In this document: positions 7,001-20,835 of the stretch, piece after piece
Numbering within the stretch: the stretch's first letter is position 1
How the letters are laid out: every line of letters starts with the position of its first letter
From: Methylophagaceae bacterium
GTDB lineage: Bacteria > Pseudomonadota > Gammaproteobacteria > Nitrosococcales > Methylophagaceae
NCBI GenBank assembly: GCA_965199725.1
Contig: OZ241321.1
Location: 1,433,359 to 1,497,358, forward strand
Direction: 5' to 3'
DNA length: 64,000 bases
The notes under the pieces: model-generated
Databases searched by the model: none
What the model was told of the DNA's origin: nothing
What the model saw: the letters and a program-made list of their open reading frames with translations, nothing else
Position numbers and translations under genes: made by a program

Positions 7001-8911
7001 ATGAATAAACAGTTATTATCAACAACCGGATTAGTACTCGCTGTTATTTTGTTTATTGCGTTTAATGTGGTGGTAAACGGTAATTTTAAATCATTACGTG
7101 TTGATTTAACTGAAGATAATTTATACACCTTATCTCAAGGCTCACTGAATATTATTGCGGCGCTACCCGATATCATTACCTTACAACTTTATTATACTGA
7201 AAAGGTGGCGCAGGAGTTGCCTGGGTTAAAATCATATGGTCAAAGGGTGCAGGAACTCTTGGCAGAATATCAGCGTAGGTCCAATGGTAAAATCAGGGTG
7301 AAAATAATTAACCCTAAGCCTTTTTCTGATGATGAACATCGTGCTAGGCGCTATGGCTTGCAGGCGGTGCCTATTGACGGGAAAGCCCATCCGCTTTATT
7401 TTGGCTTGGCTGGTACCAATTTACTTGATGGCATAGATGTCATTGCTTTTTTTCAGCCAGAAAAGGAAGATGTGCTTGAGCATGACATCACCAAGCTGAT
7501 TTATAAGCTATCCAGCGCAGGCAGAAAATCAGTAGGCATATTGAGTGCATTGGCTATTGATGGTGATAATTACGATCCGATAAAAGGAGGGCTGTCCTCC
7601 TCAGCGGGTGGTAACGCACCCTGGGCGGTCATGGCTGAATTGCGCCAATTGTTTAATGTAACAACATTGCCAAATAATATCCATCGTATCCCATCATCTA
7701 TTGATGTACTCATCATCGTGCATCCTAAGCAGTTTGCCAAAAGTACGCTGTATGCTGTTGATCAATATGTGTTGGGCGGTGGCAAGTTGATTAGCTTTGT
7801 TGATCCTTATGCTGAAAGTGACGTACCAGAAAAAGATACCAATAATCCGATGGCAGCTGTGGTCTATTCCCGTAGCTCTAATATGCCTGATTTATTCAAG
7901 GCATGGGGGTTTGCCCGTGCCAGTGCCGATGTGGTTGCTGATCGTAAAACGGCAATTAAGGTAGATTTTGGTGCCAGAGTCAGTAATAAGCCGATTGATT
8001 ATGTGCTGTGGCAGTCGATTACTGATAATCAATTAAACAAACAACAGGCGGTGACCAGTCAGTTAAAAAGGATAGAAGTGGCGACACCAGGCTATTTTAG
8101 GCAACTTGAAGGGGCGACCACCACTTTAATTCCGTTAATTTCATCCAGCAATGAAGCCATGCTAGTTGATAAGCGTGTGGTGCAATTTCGCAATGATCCG
8201 TTGGCACTTTTGACTAAATATCAGTCAGGTACACTTAAGTATCCTATTGCTGTTCGGGTTACTGGCGTGGCTAAATCGGCTTTTCCTCAAGGGGTAAAAG
8301 ATCAGTTAGCACCCAAACATCTGGCCGAATCCAGTCAGGATATTGATGTGATTGCTATTGCTGATGTTGATATGTTGCAGGATAAATTCTGGGTACAGGT
8401 ACAAGATTTTTATGATCAGCAGATTACTTACAGCACGTCAAACAATGTTGATTTTTTGATCAATGCAATTGATGACATGTCTGGTGAAAAAAGCTTGATC
8501 AGTGTACGTTCTCGTGGCGGATTTTCTAGGCCATTTGATCGGGTTGTTGCCCTAGAGCGGCAGGCAGAAAAGCGTTACCGCACTCAGGAGCGTGCGTTGC
8601 AGAAAACGCTGGATGATGCCAAGCAGCGTATTGCCAGAATGCAGGCCGAGCGCAGCGGTAGCGGTGATAGATTGCTTAATGTTGAGCAGGAAAAGGAAAT
8701 TGCTGAGTTCAGGATAACAATTGATAAAACCACACAGCAATTACGCGAAGTTCAGGGAAATCTACGTAAAGACATTGATGCATTACATACCCAATTAAAA
8801 TTTTTTAATATTGGTCTAGTGCCAATAATAGTTGCATTGCTTGCCGTGTTCACTGGTTGGCTGCGTATTCGCAAGCGCACCAAAGGCCGCAAATTGCCGT
8901 CACGGGCTTAA
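7001..8911 (+). CDS. GldG-family ABC-transporter auxiliary protein
   Basis: 636 aa with an N-terminal and a C-terminal TM helix flanking a large soluble part. Third gene of a GldA/F/G-type operon. Confidence 0.7.
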   Translation: MNKQLLSTTGLVLAVILFIAFNVVVNGNFKSLRVDLTEDNLYTLSQGSLNIIAALPDIITLQLYYTEKVAQELPGLKSYGQRVQELLAEYQRRSNGKIRVKIINPKPFSDDEHRARRYGLQAVPIDGKAHPLYFGLAGTNLLDGIDVIAFFQPEKEDVLEHDITKLIYKLSSAGRKSVGILSALAIDGDNYDPIKGGLSSSAGGNAPWAVMAELRQLFNVTTLPNNIHRIPSSIDVLIIVHPKQFAKSTLYAVDQYVLGGGKLISFVDPYAESDVPEKDTNNPMAAVVYSRSSNMPDLFKAWGFARASADVVADRKTAIKVDFGARVSNKPIDYVLWQSITDNQLNKQQAVTSQLKRIEVATPGYFRQLEGATTTLIPLISSSNEAMLVDKRVVQFRNDPLALLTKYQSGTLKYPIAVRVTGVAKSAFPQGVKDQLAPKHLAESSQDIDVIAIADVDMLQDKFWVQVQDFYDQQITYSTSNNVDFLINAIDDMSGEKSLISVRSRGGFSRPFDRVVALERQAEKRYRTQERALQKTLDDAKQRIARMQAERSGSGDRLLNVEQEKEIAEFRITIDKTTQQLREVQGNLRKDIDALHTQLKFFNIGLVPIIVALLAVFTGWLRIRKRTKGRKLPSRA

Positions 8912-10027
8912 ATGACGATGAAAAAAATAAATAGTTTAACTGTTTTGCTAATGATTACTATGGTGATGGTTGTGCTCATGCTAGTAACTATTCAAAAGCC
9001 TGAGACTGCCGATAAAAATACAGGCTTATTGTTTCCTGATTTATTAGCGCAGTTAAATAAGGTTGATACAGTTTATTTTAAAAGTTCACAGAATGAATTT
9101 ACCTTGATTAAAAAGGGAGAAGACTGGTTTGTTAAGGAGCATTGGGGGTATCCGGCTGACTTTAATCTGGTCAAGCGTACCTTGATTGATATTGCTGAAA
9201 CCAAAGTCTTAGAGCGCAAAACTAGCAACCTTGACCAGTATGCAGTGCTTGGCGTTGAAGGTGCGGCAGAAGGCGGCGCATCACTGCAAATTATTATGGC
9301 AGAAGGTAACGGGCACATAGCCGGCTTGTTACTAGGTAATGAACGCGAGATCAGTCAGCAAATCGGCGTGCGTCAGTTTTATGTGCGCAAAAGTGATTCA
9401 GAGCAGGCGTGGCTGGCAGAAGGGTATCTTAATATCAATCGGGTAATGCTAGGCTGGATTGATAGTAATGTGGTTGATATTGCCCGTGAACGCATTGCCA
9501 AAGTCAATATTACTCAGCCTAACGGTGATACAGCAACGATTATCAATCTCGGACAAAAAGATGCTTTTGGCACGCCTGTTATGCGCGATAAAACTGTCTT
9601 TAAGTATCAGCAGTTAGGCTATGATATTGCTGGTACTGTATTTCAGTTAACACTGGAGAATGTGCAGCCTGTTAATCAGTTTTCTCGTGGTGATGCTGAA
9701 GTGGTCATTGCTGAGTTTATTACCTTTGATGGCCTTAAGATCATCACTAATACCTCATTTAATGATGGCCACTATTATACTACTTTACGCGCTGAAAGTG
9801 ACACATCAATGATGGCTGATGTGCCGCCTGATATTCAAAAATTGGATGTGCTGAAAACACTAGAAGGGGTAGCGCAAGAAATAGTTAGTATCAATCAGAG
9901 GCTAGGTGATTGGGTTTATCAGGTGGGCGGCTTTGTTGGTACTAATATGATGCGTGCTAAAAGTGATATTGTCACCAGCAAAGAGAATACTATTCCTATG
10001 CCGCCTGATCTGACTGGTACCCAATAA
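8912..10027 (+). CDS. DUF4340-like protein (fourth gene of the GldAFG-type operon)
   Basis: 371 aa. Signal-anchor N-terminus, and the start abuts the previous stop. This position is usually occupied by DUF4340 proteins. Confidence 0.55.
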   Translation: MTMKKINSLTVLLMITMVMVVLMLVTIQKPETADKNTGLLFPDLLAQLNKVDTVYFKSSQNEFTLIKKGEDWFVKEHWGYPADFNLVKRTLIDIAETKVLERKTSNLDQYAVLGVEGAAEGGASLQIIMAEGNGHIAGLLLGNEREISQQIGVRQFYVRKSDSEQAWLAEGYLNINRVMLGWIDSNVVDIARERIAKVNITQPNGDTATIINLGQKDAFGTPVMRDKTVFKYQQLGYDIAGTVFQLTLENVQPVNQFSRGDAEVVIAEFITFDGLKIITNTSFNDGHYYTTLRAESDTSMMADVPPDIQKLDVLKTLEGVAQEIVSINQRLGDWVYQVGGFVGTNMMRAKSDIVTSKENTIPMPPDLTGTQ

Positions 10028-10064
10028 GTATAATCATCAACAAAGCTCATTTTAATAATTTTCT

Positions 10065-10232
10065 GTTGTAGTTTCCTCTCTCACCCCGAAAGGGTATAAT
10101 CCATGGCGCTATTTAACATGATTCTTTATGGTTGTAGTTTCCTCTCTCACCCCGAAAGGGTATAATCAAATGCGCACGACCAATGCCAGTGTACTCGTTG
10201 TAGTTTCCTCTCTCACCCCGAAAGGGTATAAT
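10065..10232 (+). CRISPR. CRISPR array with 3 identical 36-nt repeats and 2 spacers of 30 nt (type II-C style)
   Basis: Repeat GTTGTAGTTTCCTCTCTCACCCCGAAAGGGTATAAT at 10065-10100, 10131-10166 and 10197-10232. Spacers at 10101-10130 and 10167-10196. Strand assigned from the GTTGTAG...TATAAT orientation shared with Neisseria-type II-C repeats. Confidence 0.95.
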
Positions 10233-10245
10233 AGGCTCTCATTAA

Positions 10246-10292
10246 CCCTCTGAATTTTATGTAAAACATAAAGTTTAGGGGGTTTAATTTTT
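10246..10292 (+). terminator. intrinsic terminator closing the plus-strand CRISPR transcript
   Basis: 16-bp stem (10246-10261 / 10267-10282, 5-nt loop) followed by TTTAATTTTT. Three stem positions are G-U wobbles only in the plus-strand RNA. Confidence 0.6.
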
Positions 10293-10295
10293 AGT

Positions 10296-10628
10296 TTAAA
10301 ACAGCAATATTTGATCACTGGTTACTCGCTTTTCCTGAAAACTTAAGTTTCCTACCAGCAGTTTCATATTCGCAAATTGCTTCTCTGAAACCTCCAAACA
10401 ACGGATTGATCCTTCACTGGGCAGGTTGTATTTTAATCGTTGTAAATGTTTTTTAGCATCTTCACCGTTATTGGTAATACGGCTGTATACTGACCACTGG
10501 AGCATATCGTAGCCATCTTTGAGCAGAAAGCGGCGGAACACCGTGTATGCCTTTTTTCTAGCTTTAGTGGTAGTTGGCAGGTCAAAAAATACAATTAACC
10601 GCATAAAACGTCGTGTCTCCTTACTCAT
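10296..10628 (-). CDS. cas2: CRISPR-associated endoribonuclease Cas2
   Basis: 110 aa. [10 protein letters not shown]...[20 protein letters not shown] matches type II Cas2. Overlaps cas1 by 8 nt. Confidence 0.9.
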
Positions 10629-11562
10629 GATAATCGGTTAATTCAAATCTGACTTGACGTGATGAGTGAGCAGCCAGCCATAGCATTTTATTTTTGGGCG
10701 ATTCACAGGCAACGGCAAAGTTCTGTACAGCCATTTCAATATTGGCTAACACCGTGCCAGTATCAGTATTTTGGTTGTTGCCAATATCCTCACCCAAAAA
10801 GCGGACCAATAGGGCTTTGTCTTTACTAGTCAGACTACGTTTGGGTTCTTTGGCGAAATGGCGATACACCCAGTGATCAAAAAGCGGACGGTAAGGCTCT
10901 ATTAAGTCATCAGCCAGATTAAAGGCATTTTGCTCATTGTGATGAAATAAGCCAATAGCTGGATGTAAGCCAGACCCACTAACCTGCCGGGCAATACAGG
11001 CCCTGATGATGGCATAGCCATAGTTTAACGCAGCATTAAACAGACTGTCTTCACGGCGTTTTAGTGTTGTGTGCTTCAGTAATGAACTAAAATATGCCCG
11101 TGCTGCCTGTGCTTCGCAATTATCAGGGTCGCCAGAGCGCACTTTGCCTGCCAGTCTATCCAACTGCTTGACTGCTATACTATGATGACAACGGCGCAGA
11201 GTTTCAGTCTGATTAATAATTTTCTGGCGTACAATCTGCTGATGCCAGCGTTTGGTTACTGGGCGTGATAGGGCCAGCTGGGCACGCAAACGGCGCAGAC
11301 CGCGATGGTATTGCAAGTATGGCATGAAAATACCGCTGGGCAAATGCTGTTTATCCACCACCAGTACTGCAATGCCTTCTTCAGCTAATGTGCACAACAA
11401 GGGCTGGCTGACTGTGATTTGTGGGTTATCTAGCACCAGCGCACTGATGTCTTCCACGGGGATATGAGCGGTCTGTTGTTCGTTGCTTAAGCTGATGCAA
11501 AACTGGTTATGCTTTAGTGATAAATAGGCTGGCTGTGTCACTACCACACTGCGCCAACCCAT
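10621..11562 (-). CDS. cas1: CRISPR-associated endonuclease Cas1 (type II)
   Basis: 313 aa. MGWRSVVV..., [31 protein letters not shown] and [13 protein letters not shown] align by eye with Neisseria Cas1. Starts 2 nt after the cas9 stop. Confidence 0.95.
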
Positions 11563-11564
11563 AG

Positions 11565-14500
11565 TTAAATAGTTTGCCCTTTGCGAAGTGGCTGGCGTTG
11601 TTCGGGCTTGGCTTTGTATAAGTTTCCTAATATATCCACATGGTATTTTTGCAATTGGGCGGTTTTGATACCAAGACTTCGGTGTAAGCCAGGATTTTTA
11701 ATCTCATTTTCTGATTTGTTCTTATCAGTGCCTTTTTGGGGATTGCGGTCGTGTTCATAAATATTAATTTTACCACCTGCAATATCAAAAGTTTGATAAT
11801 AGCCAGCAATCGTTTGCTTGTTTGATTTGGTGAGTTTTACCCAATCATTTTTATGGAGACTAAATAAAAATTGGTAACTTTCATCCATTATCTTACGACT
11901 GGGTTCTGCTTTCTTGGGTAGGGTATCCCTCACTCTATATGATACATAGATTGGCACACCATAATGCTTGCCTTTGTTATCTTGAAATACATCTAAACGA
12001 ATCATGCTATCCTTATTGGCAATACCACTGCGCACGGGAATGCCATTTTTACCTTCTTTTTTATTAAGCAATTTAACGTGATGTATAGGCGGGCCTTGCT
12101 TGTCCTTTTTGCCTGCCGGCATATACAGGGTAGACTCCTTTAATTGCTGTTGATCTAACAGGTCATGATTGCGGCTTTGTTGTTTTTTGAGTGCGTCAGA
12201 TTTGTCTTGAGAAGGTTTTGATTTTCCCGATGATGAGCTAGATTTTAAGTCATCCCATTCCGCTTTATGTTGTTTCTTAAGGTCTTCTTTTTCTTGCTTG
12301 TGCTTGGCGTCTCTGTTAGCTTTATTAGTCAACCATTTTTCAAGCGCCTGCCTCAAACCTTGATTGCGTTTGTCGTTAATGCCCGCAATATTATCTATAT
12401 CGTTTAGTTTTAGTTTGTCTATGGGTGTTTTGAGTGCTGAGTAATAAACAGGCAGTCCCTTATCGTTAATTAGTTGGTGAACATCAGACACTGTCACTCT
12501 GGCGCGAATAGTTTCTTGATGAGCTGCACCTAATTTGCGTCGGCTAAGCGCGCGCGAAACTCGCACTTGTTCTAATCTTGTCAGCACATCATTGCGAAAG
12601 TTATCCCAAGGACGAGGAAAGTAATTGTCCAGTTGCCGCAAGCGGGCTATATCAAAAATCTCCCCAGTTTCGGTGTCGCTGTAGTTGTTTCGCACACACT
12701 TTAATTCATCCCTTTTGGAATATTCGGCGATACGCTTAATCATGCTACGGTTGGTGGCAGCAATTACCGCAGCGTCCATCGCGTGGTGTAAATCACCATC
12801 TGAGCGGTTTTTATTAAAGCCCCAGCGGGTGCGCATTAGACCAGTCACACCACCGCTTAATACGACACAGCGATCCTGCTTGCCATCTGGTTTTTCTCCT
12901 GCCCAGATGATGTTTTGCTCAATCATCTCTTTGAGAACACGGCCCACATATTGGGTGTCTTTCAGGTTACGTTCGCTAAAGTCTTTTGATCCTTCACCAA
13001 AATCTTTGCATAAATAACGCCAGCGTTTGGCTTGACGAATTTTAGGGTTACTTTTAACCCAGTTTTCAAAATTGTGCCAGCGTTCGGATTGTTCATCTTT
13101 GCCCATATACTCAAATGGGGTATGGTTACCTTTATTTTGGTTTTCATGGATGAGCACCAGCGCTTTATTGTTTTGGCTGTTATCATAGCTGCGGCTGTAG
13201 GGCAGGATATGATCGACTTGCACATAGCCTGTCTCGGGCAGACGCTTTAAGTCAATGGCTTTTTGGCTATAAGCACACTTACCATCTTGCTCACGATACA
13301 GACGATATTTTGATAGATCATCTTTTTGTGGTGCTGTGTTAAAGTGCTCTTGGTATTTTTGAATAGCCTCGTCTTTTTGCTGGCGAAACTCTTTTTGACC
13401 TTGTTCAATTTCTTTGCGTTCTTTGTAAGGCTTGTTTAACTCGCGCCCCATTTCAATATGTATGGCAGCAGGCTTGCCATATTCTTTAATAATGGCATTG
13501 ATAAGCTTACGCGCTTGATTGAGCGAACGCAAGACTACTGGGTTACGAATTTGGTTTTTATCAGGTGCGGGAATCTTGCCCGTTTTGTTGCGGTTTTGTG
13601 GTTTAACTGAGTGGTGATAACCCGTCTCTTGGCAAGCCTTATCATAAGTCAAGCCTTGTTTTTCCATAAAAGGTAGGATTTTATGCAATACTTTCAGCGA
13701 TAGATGATGATAGGTACTAAACTCACAGTCTAGCACTGCTTCAATTACTTCAGCTTCAATACCTGCTTCTTGTAGCTGTTCTTTGATGCTACTGTCATCA
13801 CGATAAGTGGTGAGCACCTTACCAATAGTATCTAATCGTTCACGGTTTTGCTTATCTTGCTGCCATTGCGGTTCAAGCTCTGCTTCTTTATAGGCTTTAC
13901 GCAAGGTATGGAAGGCTTTGGCTTCAAAAATTTTGCCGTCTTCTGCCTTTTTAGTATCCTCTTTGGTGAGTTCGTATCGTGTGTTGTGATTTTCGTCTTT
14001 TTTCTTAGTTTTGCTGTAACTTACTAGATTACATTGGTATTGTTCATTGAGTCCCAGATGTTTTTTGATTTGAGTAAAATTGACACTGGCTTGCTCAAAT
14101 GGCAGAATTTTGTAGCTGCCGTTTTTCATCTAAGGTCAGCGGTCGCCTTTCACCGGTCAAGCCAATTTTCATATTATTGAGCTTATCGTACCAGATAAAC
14201 CGTTCAGCACTGTGACAAGCTTTAGCTGCGCGATATTCACTCGGTTCAAAGGTACACTTACCTACCATTTGCGCGATTTGATCGCCGGCAAAAGTCGGCC
14301 GGCGCGCCATGAGTAATTTATCTACTGCACTTAAGAATTGAGCACTCGTATGTCGATTACATTGCTCACGCTGGTGCTCAAACAGTCGTTTCAGTTCAGT
14401 TTGCAAATCAGCGCGGTCAACTGTATTGCGGTAGCTACCGCCCTTATTGCGTTTAGCCTCATAAAAGTCATCATCTTTATAAAACATCTCGCCAATGGTG

Positions 14501-14973
14501 CGATAGTTTTTAGCTTCCATTTTTTTCTTATTAGTGCTCACGCCGCTAAGCATCTTGCCAATATCTTTATCTTTGAGCTCACTTTTGCGGTTAGATTGAA
14601 AGCCGCGGTGCTTCACAATGTGGTATAGCACCGTAGCCCATTCTTTTTTGTCCAGCAGACGATCCAAGCCTTCACTTCTGAGTTGCCAAGGGGATATGTT
14701 CAGTCTAAAGGCATCAGGCTTAGCATGATCAATTAAACCTTCGCGTTTTAACAATCGGCATAGTCTTAACAGCCGATGTGCGCGGCGGCGCAAGCGACGG
14801 CGTGATGAACGTGCTTCGCGGCGGATGAGATTAAGCGACTCGCCATCTTTGGCATTTTCCGCCTTATCAAAGGTGCGAACGTGTAAGCCAAGTATTTTAT
14901 TATCAGTTAGCAATGCAGCCCCTACTGAGGCAATGCCAAGATCAAGACCGAGCGTATAATTTTTTTCTTGCAT
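11565..14973 (-). pseudogene. cas9: type II-C Cas9, interrupted by one frameshift (ORFs 14973-14095 and 14129-11565)
   Basis: N-terminal ORF has RuvC-I (LGLDLGIASVG) and an Arg-rich bridge helix. The second ORF has IHIEMGRE, HNH (VDHILPYS...NNKALV...NQNKGN), RuvC-III (DLHHAMDA) and a C-terminal domain with Nme-like islands (IRLDVF...VPIY). The two ORFs overlap by 35 nt in different frames. Confidence 0.9.
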
Positions 14974-14996
14974 GATGCGTTTAATTCCTGTATACT
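14968..14996 (+). promoter_or_regulatory. candidate sigma70 promoter of the tracrRNA
   Basis: TTGCAT (14968-14973, overlapping the complement of the cas9 ATG), a 17-nt spacer, then TATACT (14991-14996). The anti-repeat begins about 15 nt downstream. Confidence 0.45.
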
Positions 14997-15002
14997 AAGC
15001 TT

Positions 15003-15130
15003 TAAGTGCTTATTATACACTTTCGGGGTGAGAGCCGTTACTACAATAAGGAAAGCATCTTTATGATGCTGCACCGAATCCGCCCGAACCGCTGTTTCAG
15101 GTTGTCCCTGCTGCATGTTCGGGCTTTTTT
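15003..15130 (+). ncRNA. tracrRNA
   Basis: Anti-repeat at 15012-15047 equals the repeat complement at 29/36 positions, with a central 5-nt mismatch block. It is followed by AAGG, a perfect 6-bp hairpin at 15054-15070 and a GCCCGAAC/GTTCGGGC stem plus T6 (15082-15130). The 5' end is inferred only from the promoter. Confidence 0.85.
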
Positions 15131-15216
15131 ATATCCGTTTATAAACAGTTTATATTGGCTAGATTCCAACGTTTAAGACAGTATCCTTGATATTGGGTGA
15201 ATTAAGGGAGAGCAAA

Positions 15217-15942
15217 ATGAATATTTTAGTGCTGCAACATATCAACATTGAAGATCCTGGCTATATCAAGGATTTGATGCTGGCAGACGGTTTTAATTTA
15301 ACAACTATTGAATTAGATGAAGGCCAAAAAATACCGGATGATTTAACTGGCTTTGATGCTATGTTGTGCATGGGTGGGCCTATGGATACCCATATGGAAG
15401 ACAGCTATCCCTGGCTAGTTGCAGAAAAGCAAAAAATTGCCCATTTTGTTACCGTTTTAGAAAAGCCATTTTTAGGATTTTGTCTTGGCGCGCAACTTTT
15501 AGGTGAAGTATTGGGTGGCCGTATTGTTAAGTCTAGATTGCCTGAGATAGGTGTACTTGATATAACGATGGCAGATGAAGCAAATGATGATTTTTTATTT
15601 GCTGATTTTGCTGGCAAATTAAAAGTATTACAGTGGCATTCTTATGAAGTATCTGCTTTAGACAATGATGTTACTATTTTAGCTAGTTCACCCGTCACTC
15701 AATATCAAGTTTTTCGTTATAAAGAACATGCTTACGGTATCCAGTTCCATATAGAGGTAAGAGAAGACACGGTTAGGCAATGGTCACAGGTACCTGAATA
15801 TAAAAAAGCGCTGGAAGATACGATTGGCGCTGACGGTTTGCCCAAACTTGAGAAAGCGCATATGGCTAATATTGCCAGTATCAATCAATACTGTAATAAG
15901 TTATATCAGCAATTTAAAAAACTCATCAATCATGCCGCTTAA
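15217..15942 (+). CDS. class I glutamine amidotransferase-like protein
   Basis: MNILVLQHINIEDPG..., nucleophile elbow GFCLGAQLL, and HSYE/H.E near the C-terminus. The ORF-track start (15187) is probably too early. Confidence 0.7.
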   Translation: MNILVLQHINIEDPGYIKDLMLADGFNLTTIELDEGQKIPDDLTGFDAMLCMGGPMDTHMEDSYPWLVAEKQKIAHFVTVLEKPFLGFCLGAQLLGEVLGGRIVKSRLPEIGVLDITMADEANDDFLFADFAGKLKVLQWHSYEVSALDNDVTILASSPVTQYQVFRYKEHAYGIQFHIEVREDTVRQWSQVPEYKKALEDTIGADGLPKLEKAHMANIASINQYCNKLYQQFKKLINHAA

Positions 15943-15963
15943 ACAGTATACTTATCCTGTATG

Positions 15964-16773
15964 CTACTGACTATAAAGCGCTGCTTTAACTTTAAGGACA
16001 TTGCTTTTGAGGTGGTTTAAGTTGATGGTGCCAATCATCACGCTGGTTACCGCGGGGTGGTGGTAAATAAAATTAAAATTAGTTTGTAGGTTAATTGTCT
16101 GGGTAGATGCTAGGTGGCCGCTGGCAAGAGCTTTTTTGATAAAAATACCCTTGTTGGTTAATGTCGCTTTATCAAGCACTGTTTGTTCATCCTGATAGTT
16201 AATATGATAAGCAACCATGACTAGATCAGCATCATTTAAAGCCAGTAGGCCGCCTGCTACTGTTTTGGTTGATATGCCAACTGCCCTGATAAGACCCTGT
16301 TTTTTAAGTGTGTTTAATGTTTCCAGTGCACCATGCTTATTGATAACTGCTTCATCGTTACCATCAGAGTGGATCAGGACAATATCCAGCACAGTGCGCT
16401 TTAAATTTTTTAAGCTTTGCTTAACGCTGGCAGTGATATAGTCAGGGCTAAAATTATAAGATGATTGTCCTGTTTTCGGATCAAATATTTCACCCGCTTT
16501 AGTGGCGATGACAAAATCGTGTGGTTGTTGTGATAACAGCTTACCTAAACGTTTTTCACTATTGCCGTAGGCAGGGGCGGTATCAAGCAGATTAATGCCT
16601 GAATCCCATGCTGTATGGAGTAGCGTTAATACCTCATAGTCATCTGGAATGGTAAAGCCTTCAGGATATTTAACGGCGGTATCGCGACCAATTTTTACTG
16701 TACCTAATCCTAATGGTGAGACTGACACCCCAGTTTGGGCAATTTGTTTGCGATCATTTAAGTGTATTGTCAT
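15964..16773 (-). CDS. aldo/keto reductase
   Basis: 269 aa. LGLGT.KIGR...LLDTAPAYGNSE...IATK pattern of AKR-family proteins. Confidence 0.75.
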   Translation of the reverse strand: MTIHLNDRKQIAQTGVSVSPLGLGTVKIGRDTAVKYPEGFTIPDDYEVLTLLHTAWDSGINLLDTAPAYGNSEKRLGKLLSQQPHDFVIATKAGEIFDPKTGQSSYNFSPDYITASVKQSLKNLKRTVLDIVLIHSDGNDEAVINKHGALETLNTLKKQGLIRAVGISTKTVAGGLLALNDADLVMVAYHINYQDEQTVLDKATLTNKGIFIKKALASGHLASTQTINLQTNFNFIYHHPAVTSVMIGTINLNHLKSNVLKVKAALYSQ

Positions 16774-17963
16774 TGAAAGGCGTTATTCCACAAAGGTTGT
16801 CCCATTTTTGCCGGTGGTAGTGGCATGAAAAAAGCATGCTTTTGCGCATGTAGCTTGTGTTCGGTCAGTCTGGTAATGACCTTATCAGCAAGATTAGGCG
16901 CTAGGGCAAGTTTGGTGGGCCAGGCAATATGCACATTGTTGCTTGACTTAATAAAAGCAGTATCAGGTCGTGTTAGTTTAAATTGTTTTGGTTCGGCACG
17001 GTTAACTACATGCGTTGCCCATTCAAGTTCAGGTAGCTTAAGCCACGGCAGAATATCAGCTAATAACTGTTGTGTATTGCGGGTAACTTCAATAGCAGAT
17101 TGACCAACGCCTTGTTCGGCAATATCGCCACCAATATACCAGATAATATTGCCATCTTCTGCTATGTGGCTGGTAATTGTCGCCACCGGTTTTGAGCCTG
17201 ATCCTAAGTTATGCGCATACAGCTTTGGCAGTGGCTGCTGGCTATTTTTCGCTTTGCATAGCACCATGTGCAGTGGCCTGATTTGCATGACTGGTTTGTT
17301 GATGCCAAGCTTTTCCATCAGCGTTTGATTACCTTCTCCAGCGGTAAGCACAAAGTGTTGGGCGCGGATTTGTATATTGCTACCCAGTGCTACTGCTTGT
17401 AAGCCCGCTTTATTTTGTTGCCAGGCAATTTTACTGCCTTCTGCTATGTGTATGATACGGTGCTGCCATGGTTCAGCAAGGCTTGCCAGTACACTGGTGA
17501 CATCCAGCACAGGTTCATCAAGCTGGTATAGCGCGCCTTTGAATTTAGCATGTTGAAATATTGCCGGTCGGTCAGTTTTGGTAATTGCCTTTATGCGACC
17601 ACGCAACTTTTTGCTGGCAAAAAATGCCAGCATTTTTGCTGATAACTGCCCTGTTGACCACAGCAGTTGATGGCGACTGAGTACATTGGCCCCAGTTAAG
17701 TCAGTATCACCTTTGCCAGCAAGACAGGCTTGCCAGCGTGCAGGCATTGTGCTAATCGCCTGACTTGCGTTAGATAAAATACCATTTAATGCGTATTTAA
17801 CACCGCCATGAATAATGCCCTGAGCACTCAAAGTTTGGCCACTGCCAATAGTTTTGTGTTCCAGCAATAAGGCATTAAAGCCCATCTGGTTAAGACGATT
17901 GTGCAGCCACAAGCCAGCAATGCCTGCACCAATAATAACGACATCAGCAGTGATCTGCTGCAT
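16770..17963 (-). CDS. FAD-dependent oxidoreductase
   Basis: 397 aa. N-terminal Rossmann dinucleotide motif DVVIIGAGIAGLW. 4-nt overlap with the downstream AKR gene. Confidence 0.7.
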   Translation of the reverse strand: MQQITADVVIIGAGIAGLWLHNRLNQMGFNALLLEHKTIGSGQTLSAQGIIHGGVKYALNGILSNASQAISTMPARWQACLAGKGDTDLTGANVLSRHQLLWSTGQLSAKMLAFFASKKLRGRIKAITKTDRPAIFQHAKFKGALYQLDEPVLDVTSVLASLAEPWQHRIIHIAEGSKIAWQQNKAGLQAVALGSNIQIRAQHFVLTAGEGNQTLMEKLGINKPVMQIRPLHMVLCKAKNSQQPLPKLYAHNLGSGSKPVATITSHIAEDGNIIWYIGGDIAEQGVGQSAIEVTRNTQQLLADILPWLKLPELEWATHVVNRAEPKQFKLTRPDTAFIKSSNNVHIAWPTKLALAPNLADKVITRLTEHKLHAQKHAFFMPLPPAKMGQPLWNNAFQ

Positions 17964-18629: not shown

Positions 18630-19427
18630 ATGCCAAATACCATCCAGTTTTTGCGAACAGACCTTGCTAGCCTATGGCAGGGAGAAGATATTTTTGCCGT
18701 GGTGCAGCGGTTAAAGGGTGAGATATTTCGCCATAAGGAGGGCAGACAGACATTAAGATTTATTTTGGCAGATAAGTTTTTTTTTGTTAAGCGACATCAA
18801 GGTATTGGCTGGCTGGAAATCATTAAAAGTATTTTGCAATGGCGTATACCAGTCATCAGTGCTAAAAACGAATGGCAAGCTATTCAATTTCTTCAGTCTT
18901 ATGGTATTGATACCTTAACGATAGCAGGATACGGAGAACGTGGCATCAATCCAGCAAAAAAACAGTCATTTCTGATTACAGACGAAATGATAGATACCAT
19001 GAGTCTTGAGTATCTTGGCAGGCAATGGCGGCAATATCCGCCCAGCTATGCCAGCAAGAAACTGTTAATTGATAAATTGGCAGTGATTGCCAAAGTGATG
19101 CATGAAAATGGTATGAATCATCGTGATTTTTATCTGTGTCACTTCTTATTAGATAAGTCGTTTGCTGAGCATAATACAATCAAATCTGATACACGATTAT
19201 TTTTAATTGATTTGCATCGCGCCCAGATTCGGCAGAAAACGCCAACAAGATGGATCATAAAAGATTTAGGCGGATTGCTGTTTTCGGCGCTTGGTGTGCC
19301 ATTAACCCAGCGTGATTTATGGCGATTTATGATGGTTTATTCTGGACTGCCTTTACGTGAACTTTTGACCAAACATAGTCAATTTTGGATTAATGTGCAA
19401 AAGCGTGCTAATAATATGCAGAAATAA
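18630..19427 (+). CDS. waaP: LPS core heptose(I) kinase
   Basis: 265 aa. GRQTLRF...FVKRH, HRDFYLCHFLL and LIDLHRAQ match WaaP/RfaP. Confidence 0.8.
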   Translation: MPNTIQFLRTDLASLWQGEDIFAVVQRLKGEIFRHKEGRQTLRFILADKFFFVKRHQGIGWLEIIKSILQWRIPVISAKNEWQAIQFLQSYGIDTLTIAGYGERGINPAKKQSFLITDEMIDTMSLEYLGRQWRQYPPSYASKKLLIDKLAVIAKVMHENGMNHRDFYLCHFLLDKSFAEHNTIKSDTRLFLIDLHRAQIRQKTPTRWIIKDLGGLLFSALGVPLTQRDLWRFMMVYSGLPLRELLTKHSQFWINVQKRANNMQK

Positions 19428-19431
19428 TATT

Positions 19432-20835
19432 ATGCTAGATAATACTACAAACAGTCAGCTTAATGCGTTTTTTCAGGGTAAAAATATTAATATGCCGGTT
19501 GATTTAATTATTAGTGATCGGCATTATCAGTGTACAGAGGTATTGCGCTTATTGCCAAAAAAAAGACTGGTGGTAAAAGCGCAGGATGATAATGGCAATC
19601 AGCAGGTTATTAAGCTATTTGCTAAACAGAAAAAAGGTAGGATCGGGTTTAGCCAAGAGCAGCGGGGATACCAATTAGCAAAGTGCACCGACGTTAATGT
19701 ACCGCAGTTAATAATTGCATCAACTATTGCGCCAGCTTGCTATGCTATTGTTTATCAGTATTTGAAGAATAGTCAATCTTTTACTGATGACAAAAAAACA
19801 CTTGCGCTTTATGGTGATGCGTTGATTACCATGGCGGCCATGCTGCATAAAGCTGGGATTTATCAAGCAGATTTTCATCTAAATAATATACTCATTGTTG
19901 CCGAAACTTTGTATCTTATTGATTTTTCCGCTATTAAGCAGCAGGGAATGTATTTAGATAAGTTCACCAGTCTTGCTAATTTGGCGATGTTGGTCGCGCA
20001 GTTTAAACCTTGCGAGCAGCAGCTACTCATTGATCGCTTGCCACAATATTACAAACTACGAGCATGGCAGTTTAATGCTGATGAAGATAAGCAATTTAAT
20101 GTCTATGTACACAAAGCCTGGCACAGGCGTAAAGCTAACTATTTAAGTAAAAAGTTTCGTGATTGCTCAATGACAGCATACCGTAAAATATGCTGGCTGG
20201 AATATGGTTTTTGTCGCGATTTTTTTAATCAGGCAGGTGAGTCTTTTATCAAAAATATTGATCTTATTATGGCAACTGGGCAGGTATTAAAAGCAGGCAA
20301 TTCCACCACTATTGTTGCTGTAGAGTATGCTGATAAAAAGTTGGTTATAAAGCGATACAATATTAAGGGGTTTTATCATTTTTTATCACGGTGTTGCCGC
20401 CGCAGTCGTGCTGCTGTTTCTTGGCGCAACAGCAATTTATTACAACTATTGGGTATCGCTACGCCCAAGTCGCTTGGCTTTATTGAAAAGCGGATTGGCT
20501 GGTTTAGATCAGCAGCTTATCTGGTCAGTGAAAAAAGTGATGGTAAGACCATAGCAATCGTGTTTGGTGACAGACTGCCTACTGATAGTGAACAGTATCA
20601 ACTTAGAAATATATTCACCATGCTTAAAAAATATCACATCAGCCATGGCGACTTAAAAGCGAGTAATTTACTTGTCAATAACAAGGGCAGAATTGAGTTA
20701 ATTGATCTAGACGCAATGAAGGAACATGCAACTAAGAGCAATTTTTTGCGTGCATTTGATAAAGATAAAAATCGTTTTTGTCGCAATTGGCAGAAGCCAG
20801 CATTAGCTCAATTATGCCGCGATATTATTTCCTGA
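19432..20835 (+). CDS. two-module LPS-kinase-family protein (InaA/Kdo-kinase-like)
   Basis: Two tandem kinase-like halves with motifs QADFHLNNILI...LIDFS and HGDLKASNLLV...LIDLDAM. ATG at 19432 was chosen because it follows the waaP stop. Confidence 0.65.
   Translation: MLDNTTNSQLNAFFQGKNINMPVDLIISDRHYQCTEVLRLLPKKRLVVKAQDDNGNQQVIKLFAKQKKGRIGFSQEQRGYQLAKCTDVNVPQLIIASTIAPACYAIVYQYLKNSQSFTDDKKTLALYGDALITMAAMLHKAGIYQADFHLNNILIVAETLYLIDFSAIKQQGMYLDKFTSLANLAMLVAQFKPCEQQLLIDRLPQYYKLRAWQFNADEDKQFNVYVHKAWHRRKANYLSKKFRDCSMTAYRKICWLEYGFCRDFFNQAGESFIKNIDLIMATGQVLKAGNSTTIVAVEYADKKLVIKRYNIKGFYHFLSRCCRRSRAAVSWRNSNLLQLLGIATPKSLGFIEKRIGWFRSAAYLVSEKSDGKTIAIVFGDRLPTDSEQYQLRNIFTMLKKYHISHGDLKASNLLVNNKGRIELIDLDAMKEHATKSNFLRAFDKDKNRFCRNWQKPALAQLCRDIIS

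Follow-up and report, generated by a model that had tools for sequence, protein, structure and literature searches.

The CRISPR-Cas locus and its two-part cas9

The window analysed here (the whole stretch of 64,000 nucleotides) carries a CRISPR-Cas locus in which cas9 is spread over two overlapping ORFs on the minus strand, accompanied by intact cas1 and cas2 genes, a short repeat-spacer array and a predicted tracrRNA. The features are as follows, in window coordinates:

10065..10232, (+): CRISPR array, three identical 36-nt repeats with two 30-nt spacers
10296..10628, (-): cas2, intact, 110 aa (PF09827, E 2e-15)
10621..11562, (-): cas1, intact, 313 aa (PF01867, E 2.9e-33)
11565..14129, (-): ORF B, 3' fragment of cas9, 854 aa (Pfam HNH_4, RuvC_III, Cas9_RuvC)
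14095..14973, (-): ORF A, 5' fragment of cas9, 292 aa (Pfam Cas9_a)
14106..14111, (-): coding-strand AAAATT holding one surplus base, as located by homologue alignment
15012..15130, (+): predicted tracrRNA (complementarity scan; fold z = -4.0)

ORF A encodes RuvC-I, a bridge helix rich in Arg and the first part of the REC lobe, and ORF B the remaining REC, RuvC-II, HNH, RuvC-III and the PAM-interacting end; the two together make up one full-length type II-C Cas9. They overlap by 35 nt, with ORF B in the +1 frame, an arrangement already described in an earlier sequence-only reading of this DNA and reproduced here from the ORF listing and the Pfam matches. In the stop-to-stop listing, a TAG directly 5' of the ATG at 14129 closes frame B, and the TGA that terminates frame A is at 14097-14095, so that a single joining event has to lie within 14095-14129. 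Within the protein, the REC lobe is interrupted at this point, and the bridge helix is cut off from the remaining domains.

In the predicted tracrRNA, the anti-repeat (15012-15047) can pair with the repeat at 31 of 36 positions, and on its 3' side come the nexus-like ACAATAAGG, two hairpins and a GC-rich stem that ends in a T-run terminator near 15130; an Rfam scan of 8500-17000 returned no tracrRNA match. Apart from these parts, the locus is flanked only by ORFs for ABC-transport auxiliary/DUF4340 proteins and a GATase. This description, tracrRNA included, was reached independently of the sequence-only reading and agrees with it. As regards type II-C membership, a Cas9 with RuvC-I/II/III and HNH, a cas1 and cas2 pair lacking csn2 and cas4, and an array with its anti-repeat tracrRNA are all found, the exception being an uninterrupted cas9 frame, which is lost through the 1-nt surplus at 14106-14111. 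The locus resembles the type II-C system of Neisseria meningitidis (Nme1Cas9; PDB 6JDQ, 6KC8) and PDB 8HNT in its order cas9-cas1-cas2-array, in a 36-nt repeat that begins GTTGTAG and ends TATAAT, in a tracrRNA that joins an anti-repeat to the nexus-like element, and in the domain order and catalytic residues of its Cas9. The 1-nt insertion in cas9, the distance of the orthologue (best match anywhere 58-60% identical) and the presence of only two spacers set it apart from these systems.

No second cas9, cas1, cas2 or array occurs elsewhere in the genome. Neither spacer matches the organism's own genome at up to 6 mismatches, and viral contigs contain no exact match to either; autoimmunity as a driver of cas9 loss was consequently discarded, there being no self-targeting spacer. 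A search of 82 further genomes of the family, all of them species representatives, detected no Cas9 homologue, which indicates that the locus is accessory. At the DNA level cas9 found no match in 40 relatives, and an exact-protein look-up returned no other carrier strain. Nor does composition mark the locus as a very recent island: its GC content (43% over window 10065-15130) matches that of the genome (42%), although it is the only such locus in the family.

Position and nature of the frame change

Both ORFs were aligned to >30 full-length homologues retrieved from a search of 5.8 billion proteins. Frame A tracks the homologues as far as ..LTLDEKRQLQN, for which the nearest homologue (P0003) has ..LSQDEMRQLQN, and frame B tracks them starting at LPFEQASVNFTQIKKHLGL, with LPFEKASVTFAHIKKHLDL as the P0003 counterpart; across the junction the nearest homologue reads MRQLQNLPFEKASVTF. 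Homology in ORF B starts at LPFEQASVNF, its LPFEQ being encoded from 14105 downward. The residues left over on either side have no counterpart in the homologues: the last three of ORF A (SAI) are out-of-frame read-on before the TGA, and the first eight of ORF B (MKNGSYKI) are an out-of-frame reading of ..DEKRQLQN.

At the DNA level, the junction reads CAG TTG CAA AAC CTG CCC TTT GAA in P0003 and CAG CTA CAA AAT T CTG CCA TTT GAG in the window. Dropping a T from AAAATT restores Q-N-L-P-F, in agreement with the homologue pattern, and dropping an A gives Q-I-L-P-F. Most likely, the surplus base is a T (14106) added after the AAT codon for Asn and before the CTG codon for Leu. No residue is absent relative to the homologues, which points to a 1-nt gain and not to a 2-nt loss; of the two alternatives put forward by the sequence-only reading, one extra base or the loss of two, only the former thus holds. 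Its placement of the lesion in a homopolymer-rich overlap stands as to the overlap, the tract being AAAATT (A4 followed by T2) and not the A5 run. A lesion in the latter (A5 to A4, or A5 to A7) is ruled out, since frame A keeps matching the homologues for 5 residues (KRQLQ) beyond it. The term homopolymer-rich itself exaggerates how prone the site is to slippage, with the surplus base in A4T2 and no run in the overlap longer than A5.

When one base is skipped, a read-through Cas9 of 1135 aa is obtained, free of any further stop, which over residues 6-1135 shares 60% identity with P0003 and aligns with it end to end, bearing out the earlier claim that the gene holds no other lesion. Against solved type II-C chains (8HNT, 6JDQ/Nme) it gives E values of ~1e-185 to 1e-190, the best being 3.7e-190. 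The RuvC-I, RuvC-II, RuvC-III and HNH motifs had been described as intact, and this is confirmed, with GLDLGIASVG (Asp11), IHIEMGRE, VDHILPYSRSYDNSQNNKALV (VDH...NNK) and DLHHAMDAAV all aligning to solved Cas9. The nearest Cas9 in the search of 5.8 billion proteins is 58% identical, and the read-through product is a divergent, apparently complete type II-C orthologue, to which nothing in the searched databases exceeds 60% identity. Unlike the 8HNT structure, it includes a low-complexity, Lys/Gln/Ser-rich stretch of ~95 aa (residues ~879-973, window ~12050-12340) that remains unaligned; the 8HNT alignment stops at residue 878 and restarts at 974, before the PAM-interacting end.

Gene decay elsewhere in the genome

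The genome consists of one contig of 1,500,449 bp, most members of the family ranging from 1.7 to 3.3 Mb. Database proteins reach no more than 85% identity to its RpoB, the named relatives being Methylophaga and Piscirickettsiaceae. The extent of gene breakage was assessed through a tblastn census, in which all ORFs of at least 100 codons from a complete genome of the same family (G019, 1.95 Mb) were compared with the present genome (G000), and >1,100 ORFs, each matched at 40% identity or more across half its length or more, formed the conserved set. The census rests on frame changes, candidates for nonsense mutations having been set aside (shadow ORFs, upstream non-coding extensions). It yielded 24 raw HSP pairs hinting at a frame change, among which eight candidates were discarded as shadow ORFs lying across two adjacent real genes and one as an rRNA-like region.

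A pair of LPS-kinase genes at 18630-20835 was likewise rejected as a lesion. The two genes (18630-19427 and 19393-20835) lie in different frames and, like the cas9 parts, share 35 nt; one genus of the family (G004, G015 and G019) has them as a single ORF of ~740-770 aa, and they are separate in the other genera. The split is therefore the usual state here, not a lesion.

More than 1,100 conserved ORFs are matched in a single frame. Around 6 of the roughly 1,200 conserved ORFs are broken, all of them dispensable and none essential (coordinates on the single genome contig, G000:C1):

G000:C1:383778-384904: hflX, 4 or more frame changes when set against its orthologue in G019
G000:C1:964091-964909: prmA, 2 frame changes
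1405385-1406883: comM/yifB, broken at AGGGGT
150403-151012: deoxynucleoside kinase gene, broken at GGGT
85274-85614: globin-like gene, broken
793278-794481: M48 peptidase gene, broken

Remnants of trmL and ybeD are also present. Genes with several lesions, as hflX and prmA, cannot result from random consensus errors, and real gene decay is thus under way, in keeping with a genome well below the size of most of its family and bearing IS-like repeats; the genome appears to be in reductive evolution.

Several families of IS-like repeats of 0.7-1.5 kb were also observed, with 2-3 or more identical or near-identical copies (G000:C1:507136-508613, 1106425-1107902 and 1161937-1163020; G000:C1:153664-154714, 353278-354328 and 1065118-1065819). 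Comparison of the 0.7-1.5 kb repeat copies and of the tuf duplicates showed 100% identity with no gaps, and the genome holds thousands of homopolymers of at least 6 bases. That so few genes are broken despite these thousands of runs, together with the gapless repeat copies, indicates a low residual rate of indel errors. Per Mb of conserved coding sequence, its upper bound is ~5 single-lesion cases, which corresponds to ~0.02 expected errors in a 3.4-kb gene, even when every single-lesion case is counted as an error.

Origin of the frame change in cas9

Matters of observation are the site and type of the lesion, the otherwise intact locus and the genome-wide rarity of broken genes beside clear pseudogenes. 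The reading that we favour, with a probability of roughly 0.65, is that the break in cas9 is a real and recent inactivation by an ordinary frameshift. In a horizontally acquired type II-C locus, cas9 would recently have been inactivated when one nucleotide was inserted, most likely by duplication of the T after Asn codon 289, upon which the frame would shift and translation would end 3 codons later. The gene as written would then yield a 292-aa N-terminal fragment, with RuvC-I, the bridge helix and part of REC, unable to cleave DNA, and the 854-aa remainder would be left with no recognisable ribosome-binding site. The extra base would accordingly be present in the DNA of the organism and not in the assembly alone, and no full-length protein would be made. 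Since all other parts of the locus are still intact, the break would represent the first lesion in a decaying defence locus, consistent with a shrinking genome that already holds older multi-lesion pseudogenes (hflX and prmA are found in this same genome). Reduced genomes, moreover, tend to shed precisely such genes as a defence locus absent from relatives. Recent inactivation was among the options raised by the sequence-only reading, and it is the one favoured by the census. Some observations point the other way: (i) an isolated indel in an otherwise perfect 3.4-kb gene also looks like a residual consensus error, (ii) the lesions in comM and the deoxynucleoside kinase gene, located at short G runs, could equally be errors, and (iii) there is no self-targeting spacer to explain selection for loss.

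A second option of the sequence-only reading, possible but clearly less probable than a genuine knockout, is an artefact: cas9 is intact in the organism and the surplus base is a consensus indel left over in a long-read, single-contig assembly. The use of long reads is suggested by a single 1.5-Mb contig that bridges identical IS-like repeats, and an isolated 1-nt indel, in a gene whose every motif is preserved and whose partner elements are all intact, is what such an error would look like; other genes with a single frameshift are also located at short homopolymers. Errors of long reads concentrate, however, in runs of 5 or more bases, and the cas9 site is A4T2. Further against a consensus error, the thousands of longer runs in the genome coexist with so few broken genes, none of them essential, the repeat copies agree without gaps, and the upper-bound rate leaves little room for an error in this particular gene.

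A functional arrangement, whether by +1 ribosomal frameshifting at AUU UGA G, transcriptional slippage, a phase-variable ON/OFF switch or a naturally split Cas9, is considered very improbable. The programmed +1 frameshift of prfB (RF2) takes place at CUU UGA C with an upstream Shine-Dalgarno stimulator, and the end of frame A (...ATT TGA G) superficially resembles that site: in both, an in-frame UGA comes after a sense codon ending in U, and the ORF goes on in the +1 frame. In contrast to prfB, no Shine-Dalgarno-like stimulator is found 5' of ATT TGA, neither at ~3 nt nor elsewhere in the preceding bases (AATTCTGCC), tRNA-Ile (AUU) would re-pair poorly on UUU, and the frameshift is not conserved among orthologues. 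A shift at ATT TGA would also replace the conserved LPF by SAI, whereas frame B still encodes LPF, which argues that the frame change arose upstream of this motif, and recently. As for slippage and switching, the A4, A5 and T2-3 runs are far shorter than known tracts: those of phase variation and transcriptional slippage are considerably longer, phase variation typically requiring 7 or more units, and no long tract exists at the frame change. No close relative of this cas9 able to show variation in tract length was present in the collections searched. Slippage-based ON/OFF switching, which the sequence-only reading had also entertained, is not supported, given the A4T2 tract and the lack of a split at this site among the listed full-length homologues.

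A natural split might be envisaged, considering that halves of Cas9 engineered as separate chains can reassemble and that the ATG of ORF B is the first codon after the frame-B stop. Against it, no Shine-Dalgarno-like sequence lies within 15 nt of that ATG, and the break occurs inside the REC lobe, parting the bridge helix from the other domains. All of the >30 aligned full-length homologues read straight through; among the 120 matches listed, no full-length homologue shows a break here, and almost every entry is one uninterrupted ORF of ~1040-1160 aa. Switching or recoding is, in summary of these comparisons, unsupported. Also very improbable is that the break is tolerated owing to some residual Cas9 activity, either by occasional +1 slippage at AUU-UGA-G into a full-length protein that carries SAI where LPF is conserved, or by assembly of the 292-aa and 854-aa products on the guide RNA; if true, it would explain the pristine state of every other part of the locus.

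Returning to recent inactivation, frameshifts of this ordinary kind have been repeatedly described in reduced genomes. The type II-C-a locus of 'Ca. Endomicrobium trichonymphae' Ri2008 has a cas9 split by a frameshift within a reduced genome (PMC5174739), and Mycoplasma arthritidis carries a split, frameshifted cas9 pseudogene, also in a reduced genome (PMC6882279). Their authors read split cas9 genes in small, pseudogene-rich genomes as relaxed selection on defence (PMC5174739, PMC6882279). The present case shares with them a cas9 divided into two ORFs by a frameshift and a small genome with pseudogenes. It differs in that array, tracrRNA, cas1 and cas2 are intact and no spacer is self-targeting, so that decay, if real, would be at its first step. 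The mechanistic importance is small: this would be one more CRISPR-Cas9 locus observed just as its inactivation begins, in a gene-losing genome, which fits the view of defence systems as quickly acquired and discarded. For annotation purposes, the locus should be flagged as 'cas9, frameshifted' pending confirmation of the base by reads.

As a by-product, the read-through sequence, the tracrRNA and the repeat together provide a candidate new type II-C Cas9 orthologue for expression and characterisation. The orthologue itself, with its ~95-aa stretch absent from solved structures, is only a mildly new item. In the contig of its nearest homologue (L100:9464-12499), cas9 is followed by a 102-aa cas1 fragment, two unannotated ORFs and a full cas1-cas2, which suggests an insertion or duplication inside that locus.
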